A stretch of 64,000 nucleotides of DNA from an uncultured Candidatus Saccharibacteria bacterium. GTDB lineage: Bacteria > Patescibacteriota > Minisyncoccia > Phycocordibacterales > UBA9973. Shown piece after piece: positions 3,030-51,932 of this stretch. The stretch is taken from NCBI GenBank assembly GCA_964456475.1, contig CAYVZI010000007.1, forward strand, positions 294 through 64,293, given 5' to 3'. The position numbers and the translations under genes were made by a program. Position 1 is the first letter of the stretch; each line of letters starts with the position of its first letter. The notes under the pieces were generated by a model that saw only the letters and a program-made list of their open reading frames with translations, had not been told where the DNA came from and did no database searches.

Positions 3030-3030
3030 C

Positions 3031-5842: not shown

Positions 5843-5848
5843 TATTTA

Positions 5849-5886
5849 AAAATGCCCCGCGACTTTAGTCGCGGGGCATTTTTTTG
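5849..5886. terminator. bidirectional rho-independent terminator between parB and rel
   Basis: AAATGCCCCGCGAC-ttta-GTCGCGGGGCATTTTTTT; A-run on one side and T-run on the other. Confidence 0.75.
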
Positions 5887-5919
5887 CTAGAACCTAGAAG
5901 CTATGAACCTAGAACCTTC

Positions 5920-7407: not shown

Positions 7408-7502
7408 GGGCAGAGTATACAGTATTTTGTGCTCAGTATACAGTATAATCCAACGAATATTGACTTTTTAAAATAAGACTGTAAAGTGATAAAAACTAAA
7501 AT

Positions 7503-8444: not shown

Positions 8445-8484
8445 ATAGTAAATTATTGTAATAAAAAGCTGAATGAGGAATCAT

Positions 8485-27329: not shown

Positions 27330-27593
27330 ATGCGATTTCGTATTTTTTGTACAATTTTTCTACTGATATCCGTTTGTGCGTTTCCTCTTTATTTTACAAT
27401 GGCGATAGGGCTTTTTTCGGTAGTTTGGTTTCGGAAGTATTATGAACTCATCCCGCTCTTTCTATTGAATGATATTCTATATGGTGTTCCACTCGCTCAT
27501 TTTTTCCATTTTTCATACGTTATGACGCTACTCGCTGTAATTTTGGTTGGAATAAGTATTATTGTTAGAAAAAATATATTTACCAATGAATAG
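27330..27593 (+). CDS. small membrane protein
   Basis: MRFRIFCTIFLL...; the upstream part of the track ORF is spurious because it spans the terminator and palindrome. Confidence 0.3.
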   Translation: MRFRIFCTIFLLISVCAFPLYFTMAIGLFSVVWFRKYYELIPLFLLNDILYGVPLAHFFHFSYVMTLLAVILVGISIIVRKNIFTNE

Positions 27594-33573: not shown

Positions 33574-35307
33574 ATGAAAAATAATTCCCATCAGCGAATT
33601 ATATATGTACTTGGCGCACTTGTTATTCTTGCCATATTTATTATTGGCAAGCTTTTTTTTATTCAGATTATTCAAGGAAAATCTTTTGCAGAAAAGGCAA
33701 ATCATCAGTATTCACCAACGACCATTGGGCGTTTTGATAGAGGAAGAATTTTTGCAACCACAAAAGATGGCAGTCTTACTGAGATTGCTGGTGTTTCTCA
33801 GGGGTTTAAACTTGCGATAGTTCCAGGTCAAATTCTCGATAAAGAAGCCGTGTATCTTGCTTTGAATGAGATTGTGCCAATTGACTACAAAATCTTTATG
33901 GCTCGCGCAGCAAAGACGAACGACCCATATGAGGAAATTGCTACACGTATTTCAAAAGAGGATGCAGATGCCATACAAAAAAAGGATATTGAAGGAGTAA
34001 CACTTTTTACTGACAGTTGGCGTACGTATCCTGGTGGTACTCTTGCTGCAAAAGCCATCGGATTTTTGGGTTATAAAGGTGACTTGCTTACAGGAAGATA
34101 CGGAATTGAACGTCAGTACAATGACGTATTGAATCGCACAAAAACAAGTCTCTATACAAATTTCTTTGCGGAAATTTTTGATACAGTGAAGGGCACTTTC
34201 AGTAATACAAGCGCTGAGGGTGATGTGGTTACTTCGCTTGAACCTACCGTACAAACATACTTGGAAAAAAACTTGTATGAGGTTATGCAAAAATTCAATG
34301 CCGATAGTGCGGGAGCAATCGTTATGGACCCCCATACCGGAAGTATTATCGCTCTAGCTGGCTTTCCGACATTTGATCCAAATTTCTACGGTAAAGCAAA
34401 TTCGGTTTCGGATTACGGTAATCCAATCGTAGAGGGAGCATTTGAATTGGGTTCAATTGTAAAGGCACTCACCATGGCAGCTGGACTTGATGCTCAAGTG
34501 GTAACAGCTGAAACAAAATATACAGACAAAGGCTTTCTCATTCTCGACAAATCACGAATCAACAACTTTGACTTGAAAGGGCGAGGATATATCACGATGC
34601 AGGAGGTGTTGAACGAGTCACTCAATACGGGTGCCGTGTTTGTAGAACAGAAGCTCGGCAAGGAACGATTCCGAGATTATTTTTACAAGTTTGGTTTTAA
34701 CGAAAAAACCGGTGTTGATTTGCCAGGAGAGGTTCCTGGTTTGATTGCAAACCTAAAAAGTCCCCGAGAGATCGAGTATGCCACTGCATCTTTTGGTCAG
34801 GGTATTGCACTTACCCCAATATCAGCTATCAAGGCATTTTCTGCGCTCGCAAATTTTGGCGTCCCAGTGACACCTCATATTGCGCGTGAGATACAGTACC
34901 CAGAAGGCACGTCCAAGAAAATAAATCCTGACGTGTTGCCACGTGCGATCACTCCTGAGGCGTCACATGCAATTACGGAGATGCTTGTGGCTGTGTATGA
35001 TCAAGCGGCTTTGCCGGGAAGAACAAAGGATTTGCCATGGAGCATCGCGGCAAAAACAGGAACTGCCCAAATTGCAAACCCGAATGGGGGAGGGTATTAT
35101 AGTGACCAGTACCTGCATAGTATTGCAGGGTATTATCCGGCATATGACCCAAAGTTTGTGACGTTGATGTTTTTGGTGAATCCAAAGAATGTGAAATATT
35201 CTGGTTCAACAGTAACGTACACATTTTTTGATGTAGCAAAATTCTTGCTGAATTATTATCAAATCCCGCCAGATCGCGAGCAGAGGAATACAATCAAGCC
35301 CCACTAA
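33574..35307 (+). CDS. ftsI: peptidoglycan D,D-transpeptidase FtsI (PBP3-like)
   Basis: dcw-cluster position; SxxK (GSIVKA), SxN (SLNTGA) and KTG (KTGTAQ) motifs. Confidence 0.85.
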
Positions 35308-36727: not shown

Positions 36728-39700
36728 ATGAGAGTATTTTGCACTTCATTGATGATAAAAAAAGCCTTGCGTTATATAGATATAATAAAGAGTATGGTAA
36801 ACAAAAAAAGTTTGCCGTCTTCGCGTTCTTTTTTTCCTAAACAATCTAATGTTCTTAATCTAAAAAAGAAATCGCCCATTATTGAAATCCATATTCCCGT
36901 ATTGAAAGATTTTTATTTTGAGCACAAGAATACAATTCTCAAATTTGTTTCATTTGTTGTTTGTCTTAGTATTTTGACATCATTCTTTCGAGTCAATGCA
37001 TCAACGGCAGTATTCTATCCAGAGAATTGTTTGGGTGGATGGCAACACACAAAAAATGCTCAGGGCAAGCCGAGTCTTGAAGAAGATGCACCTGCAGAAA
37101 AATTTACAATTCAAAACTCTGCAGTTCTTGGAAACTCGTCTGCTCAAATATTTTGTGGTGCTTTCGTCGGAGAAATTCCAGAAGATACAATGCCGAAGAA
37201 ATTTTTGCTTTCGTTGCGTTGGTCTGTGGATGATGGATCTGTAGTTCACCAGAATGAAACAGATATTGGGTCACCATTTGGTAGCGCAGAAAAAGTTCCT
37301 TCGTCTATTCCGGAATCAAACGCAGAAAATACTGTATCCGAACATACTACAGTTCCTACCACTGATACTGTTCCCCCAGAGGATGCAAGTGTGATTACTA
37401 TTACGCCTTCAGAATCTCAAGATGCATCATCGACATCTGAGCCCACACCTACAACTGACGGAGATCAGTCATTCCTCGATTATTTTTCACCGACAAAAGT
37501 ACATGCTGAAGATACACAATCTGACTCTGCTTCTATTCAAACGGAACAACCAGCAGTATTAGAAAATACCACAAGCACACCTTTGCAAGAAACAAACATT
37601 GTTTCGAATGATACGCCTGTCGATTCTAGTACAACTGTAGAAACAGAGTCACAATCGGAAGAAATTCAAAACAATACTAGTCTCGAAGTTTTGTCTACGC
37701 CAGAAGACGATGGAGCATTTGCTAAAGTGTCCTACACTCTTGATGGTGTCGCATGGAATACTTTGGGTAAAGTAAGTGTCGCTAACTGGAAACAGTCCAC
37801 GTTTGATATTCCACTTGGTACATGGACTGATATCTCGAAACTCCAGGTTTCGATTGATACAATTGTAAGTTATGACAAACAGCCGGTGGTGTATCTCGAT
37901 GCAATGGAGATATCTGTTGAATACGAAGAGGGAAAAATCTTTCAAAAGCCAACAGTGACGATAAAAAATGGTGATGCCCAAGTACTCGAAGGAGATACTG
38001 ATTTTTCTTCAGGCGAGGCACCGATGTTTGCTGTTGTTGACCCGAATCTTTCTCGAAGAGAACTCGCTGATTTGGTAAAGGATAAAAAAGCAGAAGTTGT
38101 TCAAGATTCAGACAAAGTTCTTTCTCCAGAACCTGAAAAGCAAGAAATTGTTCAAACAGAAACTTCAAATTCTAATACGCTTCTTGATGGTATTAAAAAT
38201 GTATTTTCTAGAGATGTTGAAAACGATACACCAAAAGAAAATAATACAGATACACAAACATCACAACCAGATCCTGTAGTAGATACTATTCCTGCTTCAG
38301 AAAGTACAAGAGAAGGTGAACAAACAGCTCCAGTCGAGGTTATTGAAGGTGCTCCTACAGAAGAGGCCGTTACTGCTCCAGAAAATCCACCAGCTGAAAC
38401 TCCAACACCGAGCGATCCTGTTGTCGCTATCTCTCAATTTTTCAAAAAGACGACTGTGTCAAAAATTGCCAGCCGTCCGCGTACATCATTGCCAAAACGA
38501 ACAGAAAATGAAAATACCCATTTATCACTTTTTGCACCGCTTGTAGCCTATGCCGAAGATATATCAGCCCGCACACCAAAAATTACCAATGCACGCGTGC
38601 TTGATTACAACGGCAACCCAACCACGATAAAAACCAAGGTTCAAACTGTCACAATCGACGGAGAGAGTCGTGACGGTGTGAGTATCGAAAAGCAGGAACG
38701 TCATTTCCGTGCAGGGCGCTATACACTCGAAGTTACCGTTGAGACCGCTACTGCAATTATTATTTCCCAACAAGATTTTACTTGGGGGGTGCTTGCAGTG
38801 AACGTAGACAAGAGTGTCTACTCTGCGGGAGATACAGCATTCCTTCAGATGGGAGTGCTTGATGACAAAGGAAATACACTCTGTGATGCACCACTTGAAC
38901 TTTCGATAAAAAGTCCTTCTGGTGCTGTGCAGCATTTTAGAACGACCGATGATACAATTCTACAAAGTAAAAAATGTGCACGAAATAATGTTGTAGAAGT
39001 CGCCGATTATTATGCTCACTATCCAATTCCTGGCGAGCCCGGTACATATATCATTCGATTGACTGCACACACCGACAACGGTACGCGTACTATTCGAGAT
39101 GTGTTTGTTGTAGGTAGTCCGGACTTTGATGTTTCCCGTGCTGCCCCAACTCGTATTTATCCATTCAGTAAATACGATTATCCAATGACGATTCGTATTA
39201 CTCCGAAGCATGATTGGTCCGGTACTGTCGTCGAAACGATTCCCGCTGGCTTTGTTATGTCTCAGCCAAAAAGTAGCCAAAAGTACGATACGCTTAAATC
39301 TACCGATGAACTCACCACTCTTACATGGGATGTTGATTTGAAAGCGGGTGAAGAAACTGTGCTCGGATATCTATTTAAGGGTCCAGAAGTGAGTCCCGAG
39401 TTTTTCTTGGTTGGACCACTCGAATTTTTTGATAAGGGCGCAGATCCCATTACTGCAATACCAGCATTCAAAGAATCTCGTTCATGGCAGATTGCAGATG
39501 ATGCAACGTGTACCGCTGCAGCGAACGGTCCTTGGAATACTTCTGGCACATGGAGTTGTGGAAACGTACCAACTTCATCAGACTCAGTTGTGATCAACGC
39601 CGGTGTTACTGTCACGATGGATGTGAATTCGGCGTCAGTGCTTGGCGTAACAATCAATGGAACACTCGATACTATTACAAGTGGAACGAGTTATTCACTT

Positions 39701-42700
39701 ACTACAACGACGCTTACTATCGGTTCGACTGGCACACTCACTGCCAATGCTTCTACGATTACACTCACTGGTACGACCGGTACGCTTTTTACAATTACAT
39801 CTGGCGGAGTCTTTACCCAAGGGACATCTGAAGTAGTGGTGACAAGCGCGTCTGGAACTCCGACACTATTGTCGGCGGCAACTACTTTTCATAGACTCAA
39901 GATCAATAGTACCGCTACGGTCATCAATGCAGGTGCGGCCATTACAATGAGTTCTGCTGATTCTGCCAATCGTCTCTACCTAGACTTTGGTGTACTCAAT
40001 GACGGCGGCAATCAAATAGTAGGAACTGCAAACGGAACGCTTGTTATAGATGGTGGTGCGGCGCTGTGTATTGGAGGCACTGCCTCTTCTACAAACGCGA
40101 CGTGTAATTCAGGTGCGACTCCAACTTCGGCAACTGTATTTCCGACGAACTATACAAATGGAAATATCACTATGAATGCTGCTGGTGGAGGTGGTTGGTA
40201 TAGTCCATCATGGGGCTATCGAACAAAGCTTACAATTGATGAATCCAAAGTTGGGTCTTCGGACAGCTCTGATTTTCCAGTTTTGGTTAGTTTGACAGAT
40301 AATCGTTTCAGAACAACCGGAAACGGTGGACATATGGGAAATGCTGGTGCCACGGACATGCTCTTTACTTCAAGTGATGGTACAACCAAGCTTAAACATG
40401 AAGTTGAATATTATGTTGCGTCGACCGGGCAGATAGTTGCCTGGGTCAAAATTCCAACACTTTCGTCTACGATAAATACAGAAATCTACATGTACTACGG
40501 CAATGCTGGTGCTGCCGCTCAAGCCGATGCCGCCAATGTGTGGACGAATGGATTTAAATCGGTGCTTCATGTCTCAGATGGAACAACTCTTTCGGCGACT
40601 GATTCCACAGGTACTTACAATGGAACTGTTTCTGGTACAACAGCTACAACAGGTCAGATTGATGGAGGAATGGCGGTAACATGCGGAAACGAAATTACTT
40701 CTCCTCAGGGTCTCTATACAATGGTAGGTGGAGGAAGTACCTATTCGCTTAGTATGTGGGTGTATCAAACATCTACTGGTAATCGATATATTTGGGATGG
40801 AGATTCTACCAACGGACTTTCTGCGTTTATGAGTATTCAAAGTGGAGTCAACCTTGAATGGGGTAATCGAGATATTGCTTCAGAAGGTATTTTATATCGT
40901 GTGTATACGGGGTTGAGTCTGGGTTCAGGTTCATGGCATCATATACTTGCTCAAAAAACGGGAAGTGGAAACAGTGGTGAGTTGTATGTAAATGGTGCTC
41001 TTAAAACCACGTATACTGGATCAATAGGTGGACTTAGTAATTCTTCAAGCGGTATGTATTGGGGTAATTACCATAATTCTGCAACTAACTGTCTTGATGG
41101 AACTATGGATGAAATGCGCATTTCGAGTACAACTCGTAGCGCGGATTGGGTTACAGCCGAATATAATAACCAAAGCTCTCCATCGACATTTTTCCTCACA
41201 CCAGCAACTGAAGAAGCGGTAGAAACAGATGCTACTGTTTACTACAATGCTGATGCGAATACTACGATTTCGAGCACACCTTCTTACCGCAATCTTGTGA
41301 TTGCTCCGCCAATAACTGGTACTCCAACGTATACCTTTGCTTCTGGTGCAACGACTATAAACGGAAATTTCACTATCAATCCGAGTGGATCAACCGCGCT
41401 CACTGTAAATATGGGTGATGATATTACTGTTGCCTCAACAAAGACGACAACTATCACGAGAACTTCCACTGCAACTTCTACGCTTGCGACCGTTTCAAAT
41501 GGTAATGATCTTTCAAGCGGAATTATTGTAATTGATACTGGTGGTACTCTTACTGCGAGTGGAACGACTTCGACGATAACACTCACAGGAACGAGTGGTA
41601 CTCTTCTCACTAACACAGGTACATTCACAGAAGGTACTTCGACTGTGGCGGTCACGAGTGCAACCGGGCCGGTCGCGTTGGTCTCAGCAGCAGAAACTTT
41701 TCATATCCTCACTATCAACTCCGCCTCGTCCAGTACTGTTGTGAACGCCACTGCCGCTGTTACGATTGCAGACGCAACAGGATCTGCACTCACGGTCACA
41801 TCCGGAGTATTTAATGATTCTGGTTTTGGGATTGCCACATCAGGTTCCACCAACAATACTTTAACTCTTGGTTCGGCGGGTACAATGTGTCTCGGTGGTG
41901 CAGCTGGTGCGAATACGGCAACGACCTGTGATACTAGTGCTACATCTACAACAACTCGTGCGATGCCGAGCTTTGCTTCTTACAGTTTTAATGCGACTTC
42001 AACAGTGGTCTATCTTTCGGATGCAGCAACAACTATCGCCAATGCGCAAACATACGGAAATCTTATTTTCCGACCTCGTTTTGTTGCGACAGCCCGTACA
42101 TATACTCTCGGTGGTGCAATGACAATTAACGGAGACTTTACGATTCAGCCGACAAACTTTGCCGCTCTTCTTACGGTGAATCCAGCGGGTAATATCACGG
42201 TCGCTTCTGGCAAGACAACAACTATCAGTTGTACAACCGCAACTTCAACGCTCGATCTTCGTCCGAGTTCGACTGACTACAATCTTTCCACTGGGCTTCT
42301 TGTTGTAGCAAGTGGTGGAACACTTGATGCGGGAAGTGCAGCTTCTGTCATTACACTTTCGGGAACTTCTGGCACACTCTTTACACGCGCAGGCACGTTT
42401 ACACAAGGAAGTTCAGTAGTAACACTTTCTGGAAACGGTGCAGCTACGATCAATTCGGGAACAATTACTTTTTACGATCTCACTCAAACTGGAACGGGAA
42501 CAAAAACGGTTGGAAGTTCATCTGCTCTTACCATCAACCACGACTTGATAATCTCTGCCGGAGAATTCGCACCAAATCTCCAGTTGGTTACCGCTAGTGG
42601 CACCAACGTTCTTTCAGTTGCTTCAGGTGCAACACTTTATGTAGATACGAGCACGTTTGCGGGAAATTATACTGGTTTTGATACGCGTACTATTTCAGCC

Positions 42701-45700
42701 GGCTCAACAGTGGATTACAAGCTTGCCGGAACACAGACTGTTGACTCCACACTCACGTACTCAAATTTGGTTATTTCCGGAGCTTCAGGCACAAAATCAC
42801 CGGATGGAAATATCACAGCAACACTCACGTTTGTACAATCTGGAGGTAATACATTTGACCTTCTTCCAGGTTCAACCGATTACAACCTCACTACTGGAAA
42901 TCTTACAATCGGCACGGGGTGTACACTCGATGGTGGAAGTTCTTCAGCAATTATCACACTCACAGGAACTTCCGGAACACTCTTTACAAAAACCGGAACA
43001 TTTACCCAAGGCACAACGACTGTTATTGCAACTTCTGCTTCGGGAACGCCGACACTCCTTTCTGCGGCAACCACATTCCATCGTTTGACGATTAACGCGG
43101 CGGCCACCGTAGTTAATGCTGGTGCAGCTATTACCATGAGTTCGACGAGCGCTCTCAATAGACTCTATATTCAAAAAGGTGTATTGAATGATGGCGGAAA
43201 TCAAATTACTGGTACTGCAAACGGGACACTCATTGTTGGTGGAAATGCAGCACTCTGTATTGGAGGTACGGCTACAGGAACGAACGCCACTTGTGATTCT
43301 GGTGCGACGCCGATTTCGGCCACGACATTCCCAACAAATTACACAAATGGAAATATCACGATATACGCATCTGCAATTGCAGGTTCATGGTACAGCAGTT
43401 CATGGGGTTACCGCACAAAAATCACCATTGACGATGCAAAAGTGTCTACGACAAATCATACAGACTTTCCAGTTTTGATTAATAGTACGAATGGAGATTG
43501 GAAATATACAGGCTCGGGAGGGAAAGTGGGCAACTCCGACGGCACAGATATTTTGTTCACATCATCTGATGGTACGACAAAACTCAAACATGAAATCGAG
43601 CGATATATATCCACGACAGGAGAGGTTATTGCTTGGGTAAAAGTTCCAACACTTACTACTTCGGGCGATACTGAACTCTATATGTATTACGGTAATGCTG
43701 GAGTTGGAGCGCAAGCAGATGCGGCAAACGTGTGGGATTCAAACTTCAAAACGGTGCTGCACCTTGGCGATGGTTCGACACTCTCTGCTGCGAGTTCGAC
43801 TGGTATAAATAATGGAACTAAAGTTGGAACTATTTCGGCACTTGAAGGAAAGATTGGTGGTGCGGCTTGTGCGAACGGAACCACACAGTGTAGTGGTACG
43901 GCGAGTACGAGCAATGGTCTTACATTTACTACGTTCTCCTCAACGACTCCGACTCTGACCGCATGGATCAAACTCGACAATGCAAGCGGATACCAAAACG
44001 TGGCGGCTCTCAACCAAACAAACGGAGTTTGGTTGAACGCCGGTAAAATGGACCTGTATACGACAGCCGACCATAATGCGAACACAAGTGTAGGTACAGG
44101 ATCGTGGGTGCATGTGGGTATGACGTATGATGGAACAACGATTCGTTACTATTACAACGGAGCTACTGATGGTACTGGCTCTGTTGCATCGTTTAACTAT
44201 CAAATCAACGGTATGTTTAAAGATGCGACTGGTACAGCTGAAACATTAAAGGGATCAATGGACGAAATTCGATTTTCAAATACCGTTCGTTCTGCCGGAT
44301 GGATTCAAACTGAATACAACACAATGAACTCACCATCGACATTCTATTCCCTTGGAGTAGAGGAAGTATATGGTGCGTCATCTGCAATTGTGTATTACAA
44401 CGCAGATGCGAATACAACGGTTTCGGCTACACCAACATATGCTGATTTGCGACTTCGACCCGTACTTACTGGAGACAAGACCTATACGGTTTCTAGTGCG
44501 CTTACAGTAAACGGTGATCTCAGTATCAACCCGAGTGGTAGTGCAAATACACTCACTGTGAATGCAGGTGGGCACATCACGCTTACGTATGGAACGACAA
44601 CCATTACAAGACAGGGAAGTAATGCGCTTTCTTCGCTTGATCTTCGTCCAAGTTCGACCGACTATAATCTTTCATCACAGTATCTGACTATCGCCACTGG
44701 CGGAACCCTCGATGCCACGAGTGCCGCTTCGACAATCACACTTACTGGAACATCAGGAACTCTTATTACATTTGGAGGAACTTTTAATGTCGGTACGTCA
44801 ACGGTTCTTATTTCTGGAAATGGTACGGCAACACTCAACTCTGGTGTGGGAAATTTCTATCACCTTACGCAGAATGCAACTGGCACAAAATCGCTTGGCG
44901 CTAATATTACGATCGATCCAGCGGCGACACTCACTATCACGCTCGGAACACTTGATACCACAGGTTCAAACTACATAATCTCTGCTGGCCATATTGATAT
45001 TGCAAACTCGGCAAGCGCAGTACTTACGGCAAATGCTTCCGCAGTTGGACTTACCGGAACATCCGGAACCCTGCTTACTCGTGGAAGCTCGGGTGTATTT
45101 ACCGCAGGAACTTCAATTGTTACTGCCTCGGGGAATGGTACGGCGACATTCAATTCGGGTACATTCACTGGTAGTAATGCGTTCAATGATCTCATTTCAA
45201 GCGGTACAGGCACAAAAACATTGGGAGCTGCTATAGATATTGGAGGCACGTTCGGTGTCACTGGAGGTACTTTTGCACTTAGCTCACACAATATAGGAGT
45301 TACTGGAGTTACAATCGGTGCCTCCGGTACTATCGATGGTGGAAGTGCAACGATTACAAACTCTGGAGGTTGGACAAATAGCGGAACTTATACATCGAGC
45401 ACCAGTACTGTTCTGTTTAATACTGCAAGTACGATTACTATTTCCGGAACAACAAGTTTCAATAATCTCACCATTACACACACTGCTGCAAAAGTGGTTA
45501 ACTTTGCGGCTTCTGGTGGTACTCCGACCTATACTGTAACTGGTGCCTTTACTGTGACAGGACATGCTGCTGCGCTCATCAAGCTTTGGTCGGCTTCTAG
45601 CGGAACAAAATGGGATTTGTTGCCGAGTGGTACGGCATCTGTTGATTATGTAGACGTTATGGACGGAGGCTGTCATTCTGGAGCAATTAATATTAATCCA

Positions 45701-46201
45701 ACAAATGCGACAAATAGTGGTAACAACGATTCATGTTGGGGATTTAACGTTGCTCCAACGATTACATTTTCAATTAATTCAAATTCCGTTCCACTCGGAA
45801 CACTTACTTCAGTTGGTACAGGATCAGGTTCACATACAATTAGTATGTCAACGAATACCGGCGCATTGCTCCTTAGTTATATTGGTGCAACACTGACGAG
45901 CGGAGCGAATACTATACCCGCATACCCCTCACTCTCTGCGTCGGTTGCTGGAACTGCTGGATTTGGAATAAATGCGGTTGATACGGCAATAAGCAATGCT
46001 TCCGGCACTTGTTCCGCAGCCATTGACTATGCGACGGCAAGCGCCTACACGTTCGTAACAGGAACTACAACTCCGTTTGTTACTTCTTCTTCTCCTGCTG
46101 ACTGTACAATCACTGCTACATATAAGGCAAACATCAGTACAGTTACTGCGGCCGGTTCGTATTCAACGGGTCTGACATATATCGTGACAGGCACATTTTA
46201 G
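36728..46201 (+). CDS. giant (3157 aa) cell-surface protein: N-terminal TM anchor, acidic S/T/P/E-rich linker, long T/G/S-rich beta-helix-like repeats, two DUF2341 + LamG (concanavalin-like) modules, and a WxL-like C-terminal domain ending TGTF
   Basis: Single uninterrupted 9.5-kb ORF. DUF2341 signature twice (SWGYRTKLTIDESKV...DFPVLV...DGTTKLKHEVEYY...AWVKIPTLS...IYMYYGNAG). LamG-like ends twice (MDEMRISSTTRSADWVTAEYNNQSSPSTF, MDEIRFSNTVRSAGWIQTEYNTMNSPSTF). ~300-aa T/G-rich repeats (LDLRPSSTDYNLS...GGTLDAGSA...TLTGTSGTLFT). The true start may be the internal Met MVNKKSLPSS. Confidence 0.8.
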   Translation: MRVFCTSLMIKKALRYIDIIKSMVNKKSLPSSRSFFPKQSNVLNLKKKSPIIEIHIPVLKDFYFEHKNTILKFVSFVVCLSILTSFFRVNASTAVFYPENCLGGWQHTKNAQGKPSLEEDAPAEKFTIQNSAVLGNSSAQIFCGAFVGEIPEDTMPKKFLLSLRWSVDDGSVVHQNETDIGSPFGSAEKVPSSIPESNAENTVSEHTTVPTTDTVPPEDASVITITPSESQDASSTSEPTPTTDGDQSFLDYFSPTKVHAEDTQSDSASIQTEQPAVLENTTSTPLQETNIVSNDTPVDSSTTVETESQSEEIQNNTSLEVLSTPEDDGAFAKVSYTLDGVAWNTLGKVSVANWKQSTFDIPLGTWTDISKLQVSIDTIVSYDKQPVVYLDAMEISVEYEEGKIFQKPTVTIKNGDAQVLEGDTDFSSGEAPMFAVVDPNLSRRELADLVKDKKAEVVQDSDKVLSPEPEKQEIVQTETSNSNTLLDGIKNVFSRDVENDTPKENNTDTQTSQPDPVVDTIPASESTREGEQTAPVEVIEGAPTEEAVTAPENPPAETPTPSDPVVAISQFFKKTTVSKIASRPRTSLPKRTENENTHLSLFAPLVAYAEDISARTPKITNARVLDYNGNPTTIKTKVQTVTIDGESRDGVSIEKQERHFRAGRYTLEVTVETATAIIISQQDFTWGVLAVNVDKSVYSAGDTAFLQMGVLDDKGNTLCDAPLELSIKSPSGAVQHFRTTDDTILQSKKCARNNVVEVADYYAHYPIPGEPGTYIIRLTAHTDNGTRTIRDVFVVGSPDFDVSRAAPTRIYPFSKYDYPMTIRITPKHDWSGTVVETIPAGFVMSQPKSSQKYDTLKSTDELTTLTWDVDLKAGEETVLGYLFKGPEVSPEFFLVGPLEFFDKGADPITAIPAFKESRSWQIADDATCTAAANGPWNTSGTWSCGNVPTSSDSVVINAGVTVTMDVNSASVLGVTINGTLDTITSGTSYSLTTTTLTIGSTGTLTANASTITLTGTTGTLFTITSGGVFTQGTSEVVVTSASGTPTLLSAATTFHRLKINSTATVINAGAAITMSSADSANRLYLDFGVLNDGGNQIVGTANGTLVIDGGAALCIGGTASSTNATCNSGATPTSATVFPTNYTNGNITMNAAGGGGWYSPSWGYRTKLTIDESKVGSSDSSDFPVLVSLTDNRFRTTGNGGHMGNAGATDMLFTSSDGTTKLKHEVEYYVASTGQIVAWVKIPTLSSTINTEIYMYYGNAGAAAQADAANVWTNGFKSVLHVSDGTTLSATDSTGTYNGTVSGTTATTGQIDGGMAVTCGNEITSPQGLYTMVGGGSTYSLSMWVYQTSTGNRYIWDGDSTNGLSAFMSIQSGVNLEWGNRDIASEGILYRVYTGLSLGSGSWHHILAQKTGSGNSGELYVNGALKTTYTGSIGGLSNSSSGMYWGNYHNSATNCLDGTMDEMRISSTTRSADWVTAEYNNQSSPSTFFLTPATEEAVETDATVYYNADANTTISSTPSYRNLVIAPPITGTPTYTFASGATTINGNFTINPSGSTALTVNMGDDITVASTKTTTITRTSTATSTLATVSNGNDLSSGIIVIDTGGTLTASGTTSTITLTGTSGTLLTNTGTFTEGTSTVAVTSATGPVALVSAAETFHILTINSASSSTVVNATAAVTIADATGSALTVTSGVFNDSGFGIATSGSTNNTLTLGSAGTMCLGGAAGANTATTCDTSATSTTTRAMPSFASYSFNATSTVVYLSDAATTIANAQTYGNLIFRPRFVATARTYTLGGAMTINGDFTIQPTNFAALLTVNPAGNITVASGKTTTISCTTATSTLDLRPSSTDYNLSTGLLVVASGGTLDAGSAASVITLSGTSGTLFTRAGTFTQGSSVVTLSGNGAATINSGTITFYDLTQTGTGTKTVGSSSALTINHDLIISAGEFAPNLQLVTASGTNVLSVASGATLYVDTSTFAGNYTGFDTRTISAGSTVDYKLAGTQTVDSTLTYSNLVISGASGTKSPDGNITATLTFVQSGGNTFDLLPGSTDYNLTTGNLTIGTGCTLDGGSSSAIITLTGTSGTLFTKTGTFTQGTTTVIATSASGTPTLLSAATTFHRLTINAAATVVNAGAAITMSSTSALNRLYIQKGVLNDGGNQITGTANGTLIVGGNAALCIGGTATGTNATCDSGATPISATTFPTNYTNGNITIYASAIAGSWYSSSWGYRTKITIDDAKVSTTNHTDFPVLINSTNGDWKYTGSGGKVGNSDGTDILFTSSDGTTKLKHEIERYISTTGEVIAWVKVPTLTTSGDTELYMYYGNAGVGAQADAANVWDSNFKTVLHLGDGSTLSAASSTGINNGTKVGTISALEGKIGGAACANGTTQCSGTASTSNGLTFTTFSSTTPTLTAWIKLDNASGYQNVAALNQTNGVWLNAGKMDLYTTADHNANTSVGTGSWVHVGMTYDGTTIRYYYNGATDGTGSVASFNYQINGMFKDATGTAETLKGSMDEIRFSNTVRSAGWIQTEYNTMNSPSTFYSLGVEEVYGASSAIVYYNADANTTVSATPTYADLRLRPVLTGDKTYTVSSALTVNGDLSINPSGSANTLTVNAGGHITLTYGTTTITRQGSNALSSLDLRPSSTDYNLSSQYLTIATGGTLDATSAASTITLTGTSGTLITFGGTFNVGTSTVLISGNGTATLNSGVGNFYHLTQNATGTKSLGANITIDPAATLTITLGTLDTTGSNYIISAGHIDIANSASAVLTANASAVGLTGTSGTLLTRGSSGVFTAGTSIVTASGNGTATFNSGTFTGSNAFNDLISSGTGTKTLGAAIDIGGTFGVTGGTFALSSHNIGVTGVTIGASGTIDGGSATITNSGGWTNSGTYTSSTSTVLFNTASTITISGTTSFNNLTITHTAAKVVNFAASGGTPTYTVTGAFTVTGHAAALIKLWSASSGTKWDLLPSGTASVDYVDVMDGGCHSGAININPTNATNSGNNDSCWGFNVAPTITFSINSNSVPLGTLTSVGTGSGSHTISMSTNTGALLLSYIGATLTSGANTIPAYPSLSASVAGTAGFGINAVDTAISNASGTCSAAIDYATASAYTFVTGTTTPFVTSSSPADCTITATYKANISTVTAAGSYSTGLTYIVTGTF

Positions 46202-46261
46202 GTTGGTATTTATACACAAATTTAATTGCGTATCTATTTTTAGACATGTTATAATAATGAT

Positions 46262-47398
46262 ATGTTACAAACATTCTCTCAAAAGTATGCGAGTAGTTTT
46301 AAAAAAATAGCTCATGTTTTGACCAACACTGTCCTTATTATCACTCTCTCGGTTGGTATGCTTGTTCCAGCCCTCACTAACGCTGCTACACTTACATCTG
46401 CAGCAGACACAATGAGCAATGAGAAAGTCAGTGCAAACTCCGATCACACATTTACTTGGACTTCTGTTGCTGCTTATGCCGCAAACGACACTATTACGAT
46501 TACATCGTCTACTGCCAACAACTATACTTCAGCCGGCTCTTGGGTGGTCGGAGACTTTCAGCTTACAATGACTGGCGGTACAAACGGCACTTCGGCAACA
46601 AACCCAGTTGCGGTAGCTTCCTCAGGACCATCATGTTCAGCTGGTGCGGGTAATTACACAGTTACTTATACGAACTCAACCAGTCCATCATTTGTTATTA
46701 CGCTTTGTAGCTCTTTTGGAACAACAAGTACAACGAGTGCTGTCACATTTAAGATCAAAGGTGCAACGGGTACAGGAACTCTTACCAACAAATCAAGTGC
46801 CGTTGCCTCAACTCTTTGGACTATCACAAACGGAGTAGGAAACACTGACAGTACAACAGTTGCAGGTGTAATTATCACCGATAACGTTGTTGTCGTTTCT
46901 GCTACTGTAAATCCAACTCTTACTTTCTCACTCGGTGCAACAACAGTTAGTCTCGGAACTCTTACTACTGGTACCACCGGTACAGGTCAACATACTCTAC
47001 TTGCAGCTACAAACGGTTCGGGTGGTCTTGCTATAACATATAGTGGAACCACACTTACTGCTACAGGAGGCACAATTGCTGCGTATGGAGCCTCAGCTGT
47101 AGTTCCTGCAGTTGGTACGGCGGGTTACGGTATTAATCTTAAAGCAAACACCAGTCCTTCGGTGGCGAGTTCAGATAACCCTATAACAAACGCTGGTGCT
47201 ACCTGTACTGCTGCAACTCCCTACAACTCTGTAAATGAGTTTGCCTTTGTTGGAGGAAGCACTATTACATCTCTAGCTTCAGCTGGTGGTGCCGCAGACT
47301 GCACCTTTCGTGTATCTTACATTGCGAATATTTCAAGTGTTACTCCATCCGGATCATATTCTTCTTCGATTAGCTACATCGCTACCGGAACATTTTAA
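46262..47398 (+). CDS. secreted T/S/G-rich protein sharing the C-terminal (WxL-like) domain of the giant protein
   Basis: Signal anchor (VLIITLSVGMLVPALTNA). The C-terminal ~150 aa aligns with the end of ORF 36728..46201 (SLGTLTTGT...GTAGYGINLK...ADCTFRVSYIANISSVTPSGSYSSSISYIATGTF versus ...ADCTITATYKANISTVTAAGSYSTGLTYIVTGTF). Confidence 0.7.
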   Translation: MLQTFSQKYASSFKKIAHVLTNTVLIITLSVGMLVPALTNAATLTSAADTMSNEKVSANSDHTFTWTSVAAYAANDTITITSSTANNYTSAGSWVVGDFQLTMTGGTNGTSATNPVAVASSGPSCSAGAGNYTVTYTNSTSPSFVITLCSSFGTTSTTSAVTFKIKGATGTGTLTNKSSAVASTLWTITNGVGNTDSTTVAGVIITDNVVVVSATVNPTLTFSLGATTVSLGTLTTGTTGTGQHTLLAATNGSGGLAITYSGTTLTATGGTIAAYGASAVVPAVGTAGYGINLKANTSPSVASSDNPITNAGATCTAATPYNSVNEFAFVGGSTITSLASAGGAADCTFRVSYIANISSVTPSGSYSSSISYIATGTF

Positions 47399-47404
47399 TT
47401 ATTT

Positions 47405-48448
47405 ATGATCAGTAACCTCAAAAAATTTCTTCCTCGATTCTTACCTATTTTTCTTTTCGTTATTACTGTTTTTTTTGCTCTATCAGCACCGAATGCATTT
47501 GCTTTGACCATCACACCTATTCGTTTTGAGCTTAAGGCTAATCCGGGTCAAACGATCAAACAAGAAATTACACTTTTCAACGAACACGAAACTGAAGAAA
47601 TTTTGTATGTTTCGTATGCCAATTTTGAGGCATCGGGAGATAGTGGAAATCCTACCTTTGTTGAACCCAAGGATGGTCTTGGTACTTGGATGAATGCAGC
47701 CGAGAAGGTGACTATCGCTCCAAAATCATCACAAATTGTACCACTCGTTATTACTCTCCCACACGATGCAACACCAGGTGGTCATTTTGCGGTGGCTTTC
47801 TGGGGTACCGTTCCACCAAAGAGTACGAGTAATCAGGTATCTATTGGTTCAAAGACAGGAGTTCTCGTGCTCCTTTCGGTTTCTGGAGCTGTAAGCGAAG
47901 ATGGTGGAATTATCGAATTTGATACAAAGGACAAAAAGAACTTTTACACTTCGCTTCCAGTTAGTTTTTTTTACAAATTTCAAAACAATGGAGGAGATCG
48001 GGTAAAGCCTACAGGAAATATCATAATCAAAAATATGATTGGTATTACAGCGTCAAAAGTTCAAGGAAATCCTGTTGATGGAAATGTGCTTCCAAACAGT
48101 ACTCGAAAAATTGAAACAGTATGGCAAGGCAAGGACGGTGATACTCCTATCGATGATGTTGATCAAGGTAATTTTTTTACCAAAGCAGGTCGTGAGTGGC
48201 GTAATTTTGCATTCGGTTATTACAAAGCCAATCTTTCGCTTTCATACGGTACAAAAAATCAGGTAACAATGGCAAGTGTTGGAATTTGGGTTTTTCCGTG
48301 GCATCTCCTGATACTTATACTCATTGTTGGATGTATTGCATACATCGCACTTCGAAAGGGTATTAGTCACTACAACAACTGGGTTATTTCACGAGCTGAA
48401 GACATGCTACGACGGGAACATGTTCGTCGTAGTAAAAAACAACAGTAA
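47405..48448 (+). CDS. DUF916/DUF3324-like Ig-fold cell-surface protein with C-terminal TM anchor (CscA-like; alternatively PapD-like chaperone fold)
   Basis: Signal peptide, LTITPIRFELKANPGQTIKQEITLFNEHE beta-sandwich pattern, second Ig-like region (GNIIIKNMIGITASKVQGNPVDGNVLPNSTRKIETVWQG), then TM helix and basic tail (RKGISHYNN...RRSKKQQ). Architecture recalled from Firmicutes WxL-locus partner proteins. Confidence 0.6.
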   Translation: MISNLKKFLPRFLPIFLFVITVFFALSAPNAFALTITPIRFELKANPGQTIKQEITLFNEHETEEILYVSYANFEASGDSGNPTFVEPKDGLGTWMNAAEKVTIAPKSSQIVPLVITLPHDATPGGHFAVAFWGTVPPKSTSNQVSIGSKTGVLVLLSVSGAVSEDGGIIEFDTKDKKNFYTSLPVSFFYKFQNNGGDRVKPTGNIIIKNMIGITASKVQGNPVDGNVLPNSTRKIETVWQGKDGDTPIDDVDQGNFFTKAGREWRNFAFGYYKANLSLSYGTKNQVTMASVGIWVFPWHLLILILIVGCIAYIALRKGISHYNNWVISRAEDMLRREHVRRSKKQQ

Positions 48449-48453
48449 TCGCC

Positions 48454-49377
48454 ATGCGTACCTCTCTTCTTATACTACTCTCTATTTTGGGATGTGTTTT
48501 TATTGTAAAGACGTCTTTTGCTGTTGAAGTTAGTTCTGGAGGAAGTGCGACTGTGACAGCTTGCGTCGGTAGTAGCTGTGATGGAGGTGGAGGCGGCGGG
48601 GGTGGTGGAGGCGGCGGGGGTGGAGGAGGCGGTGGCGGCGGGGGGTATGGAACACCGACGAGCATTAGTTTTTCTGGTAGAGCGTACCCGCTCTCACGAG
48701 TGGTAATTCTTAAAGACGGTCAAGAGGTACTGAATACAATTTCGGGACCCGATGCGCGATTTTCACTCTCTATTTCAAATTTGACTGCCGGGATGTCTAC
48801 GTTTTCAATTCTCTCGGAAGATAAGACTGGACGTCGTTCGACGTTGTTTACGATTCCTATTTCAATTACGGCTGGGACATCGTCAGTTATTTCCGGAGTT
48901 TTTCTTTCGCCCACAATTGACGTCGATAAAAGAACAGTAAGAAAGGGTGATCCTATTACAATTTTTGGCGTCACGGCTCCTGGTTCTGAAGTGACTATCA
49001 CGGTCAATTCGCTTACTCCACATTTGTTGAGCACGATGTCTGACGAAGATGGTGCATATTTTTATACGTTCAATACGGCACCACTTGAATATGGGCGACA
49101 TAGTACTCGATCAAAAGCCGAAATCACTTCCACAAACGAAGTCACATCGTATGGTTCTGTTGTGTCGTTTGATGTGGGCTCTGTCACAACCCTAAAGAAT
49201 GGCTGTGATACGCTCAAAGGTGATTTTAGCACTGACTGTCGTGTGAACTTAATTGATTTTTCAATTATTTCGTATTGGTATAAGCGTGTTGGCTTTTCGT
49301 CAAAAATTGACCTGAACGGTGATGGTAAGATTACTTTTGTTGACTTCTCAATCATGGCGTACTATTGGACAGGCTAA
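48454..49377 (+). CDS. secreted protein with 23-residue poly-Gly linker, Ig-like domain and C-terminal dockerin-like module
   Basis: Signal peptide; G23 tract; two dockerin-type Ca-binding segments at the C-terminus (DFSTDCRVNLIDFSIISYWYKR and DLNGDGKITFVDFSIMAYYWTG). Confidence 0.65.
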   Translation: MRTSLLILLSILGCVFIVKTSFAVEVSSGGSATVTACVGSSCDGGGGGGGGGGGGGGGGGGGGGYGTPTSISFSGRAYPLSRVVILKDGQEVLNTISGPDARFSLSISNLTAGMSTFSILSEDKTGRRSTLFTIPISITAGTSSVISGVFLSPTIDVDKRTVRKGDPITIFGVTAPGSEVTITVNSLTPHLLSTMSDEDGAYFYTFNTAPLEYGRHSTRSKAEITSTNEVTSYGSVVSFDVGSVTTLKNGCDTLKGDFSTDCRVNLIDFSIISYWYKRVGFSSKIDLNGDGKITFVDFSIMAYYWTG

Positions 49378-49380
49378 CTG

Positions 49381-49417
49381 ACTAGTAAGTAGAAAATAGA
49401 TAGTAGAAAGTAGAGAA
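49381..49417 (+). repeat. stop-codon-rich repeat (copy d)
   Basis: actagtaagtagaaaatagatagtagaaagtagagaa; shares a 30-nt identical core with copy e at 62821..62850. Confidence 0.65.
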
Positions 49418-49421
49418 TACA

Positions 49422-50363
49422 ATGCAAAAAATAGTAATACACAAACAAAATAACCCTCTCCACAAGAATGTAATTCGAGTTTTTTCTACTTTCTATTTTC
49501 TGCTTTCTATTTTCTGCTTCGTAACCGAAGCACACGCGGCCGATTCTCAAATGCAATTTGTGCTACCCTCGAGCTCTGTTGGAGTCGGCGATGAATTTGC
49601 TGTACCACTGACACTCCGAAGTGGTGATCAAAAGGTGAATACAATAAGCGGTGATATTGTTTTTTCAGATTCTACGGTTCGACTCGCTCGTGTGTCTACT
49701 GCAAATTCGATTATAACTTCATGGATCGATCAACCGATTCTTTCAGGGAATTCGGTCACCTTTTCTGGAATTATTGCAGGTGGTTTTGAAGGTGTTATTG
49801 ATCCAACAACCAACACACGTACTGATGGTGTTGTGATTACTTTGTATTTTGAGGCGACTCATCAAGGTACGGCTTCAATTTCCTTTGCTGATTTTCATGC
49901 ATATCTCAATGACGGCATGGGGACAGAAGCAACACTCTCCTTGCTTCCACTTACTTTTGTTGTTGAAAAGATTGGTACAGGAATGAAGTCTGATATACTA
50001 GATACAGTTCCTCCAGAATCATTTACTCCAATTGTTTCTGCTATACCTGATTTGTACGACGGTGCGTATGCACTATTCTTTCAAACAACAGACAAAGGAT
50101 CAGGACTCAGTCATTATGAAGTGAGCGAAGCATTCGGACCCTGGAAGAGGGTAACGAGTCCGCACCTGCTTTCAGATCAATCGCTCCGTGGTCCAATTCG
50201 AGTAAAAGCGGTTGATGAGGCCGGTAATTACAGAATCGAAACAATGCCAGGGGCTGGTCTATTCAACAAAAATATACTTTTGATTCCGTTTGGTCTTGTG
50301 GGGCTACTTGTATTATGGATTTTCCTTGTGTACAAAAAGAAAATGAAGAAAAAATATATATAA
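49422..50363 (+). CDS. cohesin-domain surface protein with C-terminal TM anchor
   Basis: Signal peptide (AHAADS), cohesin-like beta-sandwich (QMQFVLPSSSVGVGDEFAVPLTLRSGDQKVNTISGDIVFSDSTVRLARVS...VVITLYFEATHQGTASISF), Ig/FN3-like middle (VKAVDEAGN), C-terminal TM + KKKMKKKYI. The N-terminal codons overlap an inverted copy of the stop-rich repeat (49486..49525). Confidence 0.65.
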   Translation: MQKIVIHKQNNPLHKNVIRVFSTFYFLLSIFCFVTEAHAADSQMQFVLPSSSVGVGDEFAVPLTLRSGDQKVNTISGDIVFSDSTVRLARVSTANSIITSWIDQPILSGNSVTFSGIIAGGFEGVIDPTTNTRTDGVVITLYFEATHQGTASISFADFHAYLNDGMGTEATLSLLPLTFVVEKIGTGMKSDILDTVPPESFTPIVSAIPDLYDGAYALFFQTTDKGSGLSHYEVSEAFGPWKRVTSPHLLSDQSLRGPIRVKAVDEAGNYRIETMPGAGLFNKNILLIPFGLVGLLVLWIFLVYKKKMKKKYI

Positions 50364-50372
50364 TTTTACAAA

Positions 50373-51932
50373 ATGAACAAGAGGTTACTCACATCATTTA
50401 CAGTACTCGGATTTTTGCTTCTTTCTATTGCAACGCCTGTGTTTGCAGCAGATTTGTTGATTACTCCAAGTTCAGGATCCTATTCTGTGGGTAGGGATTT
50501 TACTGTATTGATCAAGGTTTCCACACCAGACCAATCTGCAAACGCATTTTCTGGCGAGATTGGCTATCCTACCGACAAACTTAGAGTACAGAATGTTTCA
50601 AAATCAAACTCAATAATCAACTATTGGCCGACAGAACCATCTGTATCTTCTGGAATCATAAAATACGAAGGAGTAAGTGTGAACCCTGGCTATACTGGTT
50701 CCTCTGGAACATTGCTTCAAATTACGTTTCGTACGCTTGCACCCGGAGTTGCGACTGTGAGATTCAAATCTGCGTCAGTTTTGGCCAATGATGGTCTTGC
50801 CACAAGTATTCTCAACAATCTTGGAATCGGTTCGTATACAATCAAGACACTCGATGTTCCCATTGAAGACATTCCAACAAAGGTGACTGCAGTACCCGGG
50901 TTACCCGAAGCACCTCAGGTGACTTCAAGTACTCACCCTGACCAGACATTGTGGTACAAAAACAATACGCCACTCATAAACTGGACAATACCTAGCGGAA
51001 TTTCCGGTGTAGGTCTCATGGTCAACGAAACTGCGACCACAATTCCTACCGTGCGGTCTCTCGGACGTGTCACGGGATATAACATTGCGAAACTTACCGA
51101 TGGGGAGTGGTATGCGCACGTTCGCTATTTGAATGGAAACGGATGGGGTACTACAGCGCATTATCGATTTGGAATAGACACCGTACCTCCGACTGATTTT
51201 GCTATTACCCCAAATATTCCTGAAAAAGATGCCACAACCGCCACACTTTCTTTGTCTACGACTGATACTGTGTCTGGAATTGATCGATATATCTTGAGTA
51301 TTGATGGAGGTGCTCCAATTGTCGTTCCTGCGACAATGGTATGGGAGACTCCAGTGTTGCCACCAGGTAATCATACGGTGGTAGGAGAAGTATTCGATAA
51401 GGCTGGCAACAGTAAGAGTGTAACGGCTACATTTACAACGACTGGAATTCCAGCTCCAACAATTACTACCTATCCAAAGGAATTGAAGACGGGAGAGACT
51501 CTTATTATAACTGGAAGTGCACATCCGAAATCGACAGTTCTGATTTCGATTACAGAGAAGACTGACAATAAATATTCGTTTGGATCAATCGTATATCAAA
51601 AGAACGATAGTCCAGATGTAGAAGAAGTCGTCGCTGATGCACAAGGAGCATTTACATTTATTTACGATAAGAAGGTAAAGAGCGGTACATACACACTCTC
51701 TGCTGTCACCAAGTTTGGAGTATATGAAAGTGCTTCCAGTAATTCCGTTACGATTAATGTAACGCAGTCGTTGTTTATGCGACTTCTCGGGTTGTTTATC
51801 CAGTACTTCAACATAATCGTTTCTTGTATAGCTATCATCTCATTGTTTATTTCGGTAATGCTGTATCGCGAGATCAAAAAAATCCACAGGCACATCGGCT
51901 ATCCGGAAGGAGGCCCAAAGCCGATGGTTTAG
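50373..51932 (+). CDS. cohesin-domain surface protein with Ig/FN3-like repeats and C-terminal TM anchor
   Basis: Signal peptide, cohesin-like N-terminal domain (DLLITPSSGSYSVGRDFTVLIKVSTPDQSANAFSGEIGYPTDKLRVQNVS...LLQITFRTLAPGVATVRF), FN3-like modules (VFDKAGNSKS), C-terminal TM (IIVSCIAIISLFISVMLY) and charged tail. Confidence 0.65.
   Translation: MNKRLLTSFTVLGFLLLSIATPVFAADLLITPSSGSYSVGRDFTVLIKVSTPDQSANAFSGEIGYPTDKLRVQNVSKSNSIINYWPTEPSVSSGIIKYEGVSVNPGYTGSSGTLLQITFRTLAPGVATVRFKSASVLANDGLATSILNNLGIGSYTIKTLDVPIEDIPTKVTAVPGLPEAPQVTSSTHPDQTLWYKNNTPLINWTIPSGISGVGLMVNETATTIPTVRSLGRVTGYNIAKLTDGEWYAHVRYLNGNGWGTTAHYRFGIDTVPPTDFAITPNIPEKDATTATLSLSTTDTVSGIDRYILSIDGGAPIVVPATMVWETPVLPPGNHTVVGEVFDKAGNSKSVTATFTTTGIPAPTITTYPKELKTGETLIITGSAHPKSTVLISITEKTDNKYSFGSIVYQKNDSPDVEEVVADAQGAFTFIYDKKVKSGTYTLSAVTKFGVYESASSNSVTINVTQSLFMRLLGLFIQYFNIIVSCIAIISLFISVMLYREIKKIHRHIGYPEGGPKPMV

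Follow-up and report, generated by a model that had tools for sequence, protein, structure and literature searches.

Two adjacent genes in a 64,000-nucleotide (nt) stretch of DNA from an uncultured Patescibacteria member (contig CAYVZI010000007.1, positions 294 to 64,293; hereafter the window) encode secreted proteins of 3,157 and 378 amino acids (aa) that end in the same domain of about 150-160 residues. This domain is a pilin domain of the Pam type, which belongs to Patescibacteria, or the candidate phyla radiation (CPR). The two genes open a run of six (36728..51932, all on the + strand, with gaps of 5-60 nt), and the most likely product of this locus is a thin fibre on the cell surface, with the 3,157-residue protein as the adhesin at its tip. 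It is probable, in our judgement, that the locus is a compact, usher-less, chaperone-assisted donor-strand-exchange pilus operon; this estimate applies to the overall kind of system, and the roles of the individual products are held less firmly.

The shared C-terminal domain

An earlier note on this DNA had placed, between 45700 and 47398, a C-terminal domain common to the two neighbours, which it described as otherwise unrelated. BLASTP of the 3,157-aa protein (the giant) against the 378-aa open reading frame (ORF) returned one significant high-scoring segment pair (HSP), which joins residues 3008-3157 and 216-378 at 45% identity (composition-adjusted E = 8e-14). All further HSPs had E > 3, so the giant and the 378-aa protein are unrelated outside the domain. 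The coordinates of the note correctly cover the giant's tail to the end of the second ORF, and every motif that it had quoted is present in both ORFs (LGTLT, GTAG(F/Y)GIN, ADCT(I/F) and (L/I)(T/S)YI(V/A)TGTF), with the stop codon directly after TGTF. In the window, translated in all six frames, a family hidden Markov model (HMM) built from independent homologues had just two hits, one in the giant and one in the 378-aa protein, and the next-best match had E = 0.6; as an independent model found the domain twice only, a compositional artefact is ruled out. Regular-expression and hydropathy scans of both proteins revealed no LPXTG motif, transmembrane segment or basic tail after the domain, which agrees with the note's view that it is a folded interaction domain rather than a sortase- or exosortase-type signal. 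The folded character is also borne out by the all-beta structure model described below. The two copies are as follows:

45749..46198, + strand: first copy of the Pam pilin C-terminal domain; residues 3008-3157 of the giant, with the terminus ...LTYIVTGTF-COOH; NF058581 76 bits, family HMM E = 6e-47; Cys3095 and Cys3126 likely form a disulfide
46913..47395, + strand: second copy of the Pam pilin C-terminal domain; residues 218-378 of the 378-aa protein, with the terminus ...ISYIATGTF-COOH; NF058581 105.6 bits, family HMM E = 2e-60; Cys315 and Cys347 likely form a disulfide

The family model NF058581 of NCBIfam release 20 (CPR_Pam_pilin_C, Pam pilus system pilin subunit) scored 76.0 bits for the giant tail and 105.6 bits for the 378-aa protein against a curated whole-protein cut-off of 55 bits, and it matched 51 of the 52 homologues of the latter. 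With the curated cut-off passed twice, the shared domain is a Pam-type pilin domain of Patescibacteria. The domain and the Pam system had already been described (2026 preprint; as of mid-2026), and the present locus adds another member. The note had also suggested an SCPU/pilin-like beta-sandwich; the pilin-like part of this was essentially correct, because both copies exceed the NF058581 cut-off, and the rest gained no backing from Pfam scans of the two domains and the 52 family members, which gave no match, fimbrial and SCPU families included. Sequence and profile searches of the PDB likewise returned no match for either the pilin family or the chaperone-like family described below, and neither did tblastn of the domain against 72,556 plasmids. 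A scan of the genome contigs found one locus only.

In the CPR parasite Ca. Mycosynbacter amalyticus, cryo-electron microscopy (cryo-EM) of filaments/pili showed that PamA and PamB consist of an N-terminal sandwich, a linker that serves as a donor strand and a truncated immunoglobulin (Ig) C-terminal domain (bioRxiv 10.64898/2026.03.03.709456). The latter is an open barrel, or incomplete Ig-like fold, which the linker strand of a neighbouring subunit fills, and a paired Cys/disulfide was reported for both pilins (bioRxiv 10.64898/2026.03.03.709456). The pam operon further encodes the PapD/FimC-like chaperones PamC and PamD, each with a C-terminal transmembrane helix, the single-domain tip pilin PamT, and the anchor (terminator) PamR, with an N-terminal strand that, by prediction, caps the final pilin (bioRxiv 10.64898/2026.03.03.709456).

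In a search of 1.84 billion cluster representatives with a profile of the domain alone, 2,330 proteins matched (E <= 1e-3), of which 1,104 had E <= 1e-10; recurrence in relatives, on which the earlier note had let its proposal depend, is thus seen in 2,330 protein clusters. Of the 150 matches listed, nearly all extend to the last residue of the protein. By length, two-domain pilins of 330-400 aa were the commonest among these listed matches (n = 77), followed by PamT-like proteins of 200-280 aa (n = 30), about 20 members of 450-1,000 aa and a few giants (1,252, 2,295 and 2,636 aa). The nearest named relatives were metagenome-assembled genomes (MAGs) of Candidatus Nomurabacteria (Parcubacteria group), in keeping with a restriction of the family to CPR/Patescibacteria. 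Two Cys residues (GTC...ADC) were either both present or both absent across the aligned domains, and this co-occurrence fits a disulfide as reported for PamA and PamB. The final residue of 207 retrieved members was F in 177, Y in 28 and L in 2. In chaperone-usher pilins, the carboxylate of the C-terminal strand is gripped by the chaperone, and the nearly invariant aromatic C-terminus of the present family recalls that strand.

Pilin, membrane-anchored partner and giant protein

The first three genes of the locus and their proposed functional segments are as follows:

36728..46201, + strand: giant secreted protein, 3,157 aa as called; proposed tip adhesin
45662..45748, + strand: Cys-bridged 'neck' of the giant, DGGCHSGAININPTNATNSGNNDSCWGFN, residues 2979-3007; occupies the position of the pilin donor linker
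46262..47398, + strand: pilin of two domains, 378 aa; a signal peptide, then the N-terminal beta-sandwich (~42-205), the linker and, at the C-terminus, the Pam domain
46883..46909, + strand: proposed donor (linker) strand NVVVVSATV, pilin residues 208-216; family consensus NDVVTVTATV
47405..48448, + strand: chaperone-like protein with a membrane anchor, 347 aa; signal peptide, then a pair of Ig-like beta-sandwich domains, with a transmembrane helix and a basic tail at the C-terminus

The AlphaFold2 (AF2) model of the 378-aa protein, built with a 52-sequence alignment, is all-beta with a mean predicted local distance difference test (pLDDT) value of 89.5 and has the two-domain layout of the Pam pilins, with an N-terminal sandwich (residues 45-205), a linker of one strand and then a C-terminal domain (220-377). 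In the monomer model, residues 206-219 are assigned by DSSP to unpaired coil and have lower pLDDT. V212, A214 and V216 within this linker are nearly invariant in the family alignment, and the strand is kept in the two-domain pilins of all eight loci compared (the window and seven related loci, see below). The linker looks like a donor strand that the monomer model leaves partnerless. The corresponding donor motif, [VI][TS]A[TCS]V[NGP], occurs twice in the 16,932 residues of the 45 window ORFs, once in the pilin linker and once at residues 34-39 of a 307-aa protein encoded two genes downstream; across 36,032 cassette residues from the eight loci, it was confined to the linker of the pilin and the N-terminus of this second, dockerin-bearing protein. 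On these sequence features, the 378-aa protein is proposed to be the shaft subunit.

An extended -10 type box, TGTTATAAT, was observed at window positions 46245-46255, inside the 60-nt gap and ~7 nt upstream of the pilin ATG (46262). It is absent from the consensus scan list because it has no -35 match. The box could be a promoter of the pilin's own and give a near-leaderless mRNA, and such a separate promoter would fit the need for a shaft subunit in surplus.

The AF2 model of the 347-aa protein (mean pLDDT 90.8) comprises two beta-sandwich domains and a long helix (residues 299-346) that contains the transmembrane segment. Its best Foldseek matches in the PDB were 9i25_C and 9i1y (WxLIP, E about 1e-9), the title of 9i25 being 'WxLIP from Enterococcus faecium locus A bound to long WxL', and the next were the chaperones of chaperone-usher systems (CfaA, CsuC, DraB, CupB2, FimC, Caf1M and EcpB). 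By hhalign, the CPR chaperone-like family aligned with WxLIP/DUF916 over 272 columns (probability 99.1%, E = 1.3e-18), and 32 of its 62 members matched Pfam WxLIP_PGBD (E <= 0.01). The 347-aa protein is clearly a homologue of WxLIP (DUF916/DUF3324). As a PapD/FimC-like two-domain chaperone with a C-terminal transmembrane helix, encoded beside the pilin, it can also be likened by architecture to PamC and PamD.

The domain itself had been guessed in the earlier note to be a degenerate WxL domain. This guess fails on sequence: in comparisons with genes for WxL and WxLIP, taken from plasmids of E. faecium and L. garvieae, and with 51 WxL homologues, the domain could not be shown to belong to WxL. 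Pfam WxL (PF13731) gave no match to the two domains at E <= 10 and none to the 52 family members at E <= 1, and the W.L motif is absent from the last 170 residues of both proteins (WxL requires two Trp-x-Leu). The hhalign comparison of the domain with the WxL alignment was not significant (E = 0.36, probability 0.2%), and the best WxL HMM score, 8.6 bits, was no better than those of 20 shuffles, which ranged as high as 8.1 bits. Aligned permissively, the domain and WxL are colinear, pairing LGTL with dFG, TNa.GY.V with D.RG..GW.L and GsYst.lTY with Y.s.ieW.L. The locus also has the layout of a WxL cluster, with the C-terminal domain on a small and a large client beside a WxLIP gene; in published WxL clusters, a small WxL protein and a large protein that carries the WxL domain at its C-terminus accompany a transmembrane-anchored WxLIP, and AF2 predicts a WxLIP strand that inserts into WxL (PMC10599100, PMC9772566). 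A deep relationship between the Pam-type and the WxL systems is plausible, and the guess that failed for the domain was a useful lead to its neighbour. The Pam preprint mentions neither WxL nor DUF916, and our literature search returned nothing relevant that joins WxL with a donor strand, nor a paper behind 9i25/9i1y.

Comparison DUF916 genes were taken from two actinobacterial plasmids, of Clavibacter phaseoli (L004, 6101-7915) and Cellulosimicrobium protaetiae (L005, 6070-7912). In both, a secreted protein of ~210 aa precedes the DUF916 gene and ends in ...GSYSSTLTLTLFE(DTY), which resembles the Pam/WxL C-terminal motif, and flanking the pair are large LamG and GH43 proteins with a common C-terminal module (~90 aa) that ends in SCG or SCR. 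The small proteins beside these DUF916 genes had no significant match to Pfam WxL or to the Pam profile. The two loci may represent a third variant of the logic in which a small and a large client accompany a DUF916 partner.

The giant combines Ser/Thr/Pro-rich spacers, an MG2-like region, G8/beta-helix repeats and two DUF2341 + Laminin_G_3 (concanavalin A-like lectin) modules, and contains 16% Thr, 11% Ser and 10% Gly. Its sole signal-peptide-like hydrophobic segment lies at residues ~68-90 (NTILKFVSFVVCLSILTSF...VNA/ST), behind a long basic leader (window 36728-37000); judged from this sequence, the true start is probably downstream of the first ATG. Where the pilin has its N-terminal domain and linker, the giant has a ~3,000-aa passenger and the neck, whose consensus directly before the domain is DGGC.SG.I.I.PTN..N.GNND.CW.F in an alignment of nine giant or large family members. 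The neck retains an alternating hydrophobic W-x-F-x-V just before the domain. The donor motif occurs nowhere in the giant, nor in the giants of the eight loci. A protein that has the acceptor domain without a donor strand could only be the first, distal subunit, so the giant is a candidate tip adhesin. Orthologous giants of 2,276-3,310+ aa occupy the same position in the seven related loci.

Putative fibre base and the conserved cassette

The remaining three genes and the segments discussed here are as follows:

48454..49377, + strand: secreted 307-aa protein; signal peptide, donor-like strand, poly-Gly linker, Big_6 Ig domain, C-terminal type I dockerin-like module
48544..48567, + strand: donor-like strand SATVTACV of the 307-aa protein, just after the signal peptide
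48583..48645, + strand: 21-Gly linker of the 307-aa protein, encoded by consecutive mixed GGN codons, directly after the donor-like strand
49422..50363, + strand: 313-aa protein; signal peptide, cohesin-like N-terminal domain, C-terminal transmembrane helix; proposed membrane anchor for the dockerin protein
50373..51932, + strand: 519-aa protein; signal peptide, N-domain akin to that of the 313-aa protein, Ig domains of the Big_13/OmpL47 type, C-terminal transmembrane helix

No Pam acceptor domain is present in the 307-aa protein. Its orthologues in all eight loci possess a (V/I)(T/S)A(T/C/S/D/I)V strand a few residues past the signal peptide, followed by a Gly/Pro-rich tether of varying length, and the orthologue in one of them (L008) passes the Pfam cut-offs for both Dockerin_1 and Big_6. 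With a donor-like strand and no acceptor domain, this protein would end a fibre, and on these sequence grounds it is proposed to be the base or terminator subunit. The N-domains of the 313-aa and 519-aa proteins are related to one another and gave sub-threshold Cohesin matches; the 519-aa protein is a candidate second anchor.

The same cassette order was found in seven related loci, one in a Ca. Nomurabacteria MAG (L001) and six in metagenomic or MAG sequences (L002/L003, L008 and L010-L013). It runs from the giant through a ~360-aa pilin, a ~345-aa chaperone-like protein and a ~300-aa Big_6 + dockerin protein to one or two cohesin-like transmembrane proteins. No usher-like protein is encoded among the cassette products. 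Including the window, the giant ends in the Pam domain in seven of the eight loci, and in L013 it appears to be split. In this last locus (3-9902), a long ORF ends in poly-Gly and is followed by ORFs of 150 aa and 331 aa, the latter with the Pam domain and no donor motif; this could reflect a frameshift, an assembly error or a genuine split. In L010 (11134-11866), which keeps the gene order in other respects, the expected place of the chaperone-like gene is a 730-nt stretch with no called gene, bounded by the pilin and the dockerin protein; a pseudogene or a missed call could lie there. A more distant Pam locus, L009 (10001-13823), encodes a 351-aa pilin, a 334-aa chaperone-like protein, a second pilin of 340 aa (ending ...TIVVNP) and a 208-aa single-domain chaperone-like transmembrane protein, an order nearer to the published pam operon than the window cassette is; a sortase gene and a Peptidase_S74 (tail-fibre-like) protein lie in its neighbourhood.

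In the window, the cassette is surrounded by housekeeping genes, including those for two penicillin-binding proteins, a Mur ligase, tRNA synthetases, topoisomerase I, RelA/SpoT, ParB, DNA polymerase III and GAPDH. Both penicillin-binding proteins are of class B (transpeptidase and PBP dimer domains) and are encoded within 8 kb of each other (27562-29298 and 33574-35307). The Mur ligase gene lies directly upstream of the pilus cassette, and L010 has the identical Mur ligase/giant adjacency.

Assembly model, alternative readings and relation to known systems

In the model that we propose, the shared domain would be an incomplete Ig-like beta-sandwich, tied to the extreme C-terminus of its protein and completed in trans by a beta-strand of a partner. 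The six products would be exported by Sec, and the membrane-anchored WxLIP/PapD-like protein of 347 aa would cap the open groove of newly exported C-terminal domains. The 378-aa pilin would then polymerise head-to-tail, its linker strand NVVVVSATV entering the groove of the subunit ahead. The 3,157-aa protein would be the distal first subunit, a giant tip adhesin of lectin and beta-helix modules analogous to FimH/PapG. At the other end, the 307-aa protein would terminate the fibre and dock through its dockerin module to the cohesin-like transmembrane proteins (49422..50363 and 50373..51932).

Several points weigh against this model. The PamT equivalog model NF058579 (cut-off 240 bits) scored the two proteins at only 49.8 and 70.4 bits, neither the giant nor the 378-aa protein is single-domain as PamT is (about 240 aa), and no PamT-like single-domain cap is encoded within the 64-kb window. 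A Foldseek search of the PDB with the entire pilin model was uninformative, giving generic tandem-Ig structures only (integrin legs, RbmA, MSCRAMMs; TM-score about 0.2). The W-x-F-x-V of the giant's neck might still serve as a strand. At the putative base, the dockerin match of the 307-aa protein itself, 22.1 bits, is just under the threshold of 22.9, and the Pfam Cohesin score of the 313-aa protein is 18.7 bits (20.1 bits for the L001 orthologue) against a cut-off of 24.1. The open groove, strand insertion, subunit order and, in this lineage, the filament itself are proposed from sequence patterns and analogy, the experimental structures coming only from a Saccharimonadia species.

These points have to be set beside other explanations of the shared domain. 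One is static anchoring of the WxL type, in which the domain would be the CPR counterpart of WxL, non-polymerising and held non-covalently by a permanently inserted strand of the 347-aa protein, possibly with peptidoglycan binding added, so that the giant and the 378-aa protein stand side by side on the envelope as 'large' and 'small' clients. This draws on the bona fide WxLIP homology of the partner, on the small/large/transmembrane-anchored WxLIP make-up of WxL clusters and the strand insertion that AF2 predicts there (PMC10599100, PMC9772566), on the title of 9i25, which has WxLIP bound to long WxL, and on the colinearity of the two domain profiles in the permissive alignment. However, the domain is not detectably WxL and passes a Pam pilin model whose founding members are polymerised in cryo-EM, and the nearly invariant unpaired linker of the pilin and the N-terminal motif of the dockerin protein would be left with no role. 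We regard static anchoring, although the main rival, as unlikely.

A strictly C-terminal domain on very different passengers could also be thought of as a secretion or sorting signal that is removed after recognition, like the C-terminal domains of the type IX secretion system (T9SS) or the signals of sortases and exosortases. We rejected such readings, to which we attach very little probability: signal features (LPXTG, transmembrane segment, basic tail) are lacking, the conserved cassette contains no sorting enzyme or T9SS component, and the domain makes up half of the commonest family members and is retained in assembled PamA/PamB filaments. A chance or compositional resemblance between Thr/Ser/Gly/Ala-rich surface proteins, both of which are indeed strongly biased, is close to inconceivable, since it is refuted by the adjusted BLASTP value (8e-14), the independent HMM, the passing of NF058581 and synteny, the same giant/pilin pairing being kept in seven other loci.

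The donor-strand-exchange pilus, which we prefer, is nearest to the Pam pilus of Ca. Mycosynbacter amalyticus (PamA/B/E/T, PamC/D and PamR). The two share the C-terminal domain family, the two-domain pilin layout, paired Cys, Sec export, a two-domain chaperone-like protein with a C-terminal transmembrane helix, the lack of an usher and CPR hosts, and in both the fibre could be ended by a component whose N-terminus bears a donor-like strand. They differ in that the present locus encodes a single pilin and a single chaperone, against three or four pilins and two chaperones in the Pam system, and in that a ~3,000-aa adhesin bears the acceptor domain here, with no PamT-like cap in the window. Moreover, the putative terminator has no transmembrane helix of its own and carries instead a dockerin-like module, with two cohesin-like transmembrane proteins as neighbours, and the adjacent genes are those for a penicillin-binding protein and a Mur ligase rather than for ATP synthase. 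The words 'adhesin' and 'giant' are absent from the Pam preprint.

With the WxL/Csc clusters of Lactobacillales and Listeria, where WxLIP consists of DUF916, DUF3324 and a transmembrane segment, the locus has in common a partner that is homologous over its full length, a partner strand predicted to insert into the client, and a parallel small/large/partner architecture. On the other hand, the client here has no Pfam WxL match or W-x-L and shows F/Y-x-V/I and Y-x-A/V at the colinear positions, the cassette encodes no LPXTG protein, and WxL proteins are described as peptidoglycan-bound rather than as fibres. Chaperone-usher pili (Fim, Pap, CFA/I and archaic Csu) resemble the proposed system in having an incomplete Ig-like pilin completed by a donor strand, a PapD-like two-domain chaperone, and a C-terminal strand that ends in an aromatic residue, and the two-domain tip adhesins FimH and PapG likewise combine an acceptor domain with the lack of a donor strand. 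Unlike those pili, however, the present system would work with no outer membrane and no usher, with a chaperone that is transmembrane-tethered rather than soluble and periplasmic, and with an internal linker instead of an N-terminal extension as the donor; no sequence similarity is detectable, and the Pam-type fibre was reported to be linear, not coiled.

Sortase pilins and other LPXTG proteins differ from both proteins, in which LPXTG, the hydrophobic segment and the basic tail are all missing. The cellulosomal cohesin-dockerin pair finds a parallel in the two-repeat type I dockerin-like module at the end of the 307-aa protein and the transmembrane-anchored cohesin-like products of the next two genes, whereas glycoside hydrolases and a scaffoldin are lacking, the cohesin assignments are sub-threshold, and a use in tethering the base of a pilus has not been described. 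In the literature searched, we found no description of a giant acceptor-only adhesin, of a dockerin/cohesin base or of the homology between the CPR chaperone-like proteins and WxLIP.

Tentatively, and with somewhat less than even confidence, we suggest that Pam pili, the WxL/Csc clusters known from Firmicutes and the actinobacterial DUF916 loci may be a single ancient system of monoderm bacteria that works without an usher, its clients being completed through strand complementation by a chaperone tethered to the membrane. The TGTF domain would then be the CPR counterpart of WxL, and the Nomurabacteria-like lineage would have pared the system down to one shaft pilin, a ~3,000-aa acceptor-only tip of lectin and beta-helix modules, and a base tied by dockerin and cohesin. 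If this is true, donor-strand complementation might also serve to assemble WxL proteins, perhaps as fibres.

For the most part, CPR bacteria are episymbionts that have not been cultured, and a central question is by what means they locate their hosts and keep hold of them. The locus offers a testable picture for a lineage of the Parcubacteria group, namely a Pam-type fibre with a tip adhesin whose two lectin modules make it a natural candidate for host recognition. The strong homology between the CPR chaperone-like proteins and WxLIP also joins two bodies of literature that, in the texts searched, make no reference to one another, and suggests that the display of surface proteins by strand complementation is widespread in bacteria without an outer membrane.

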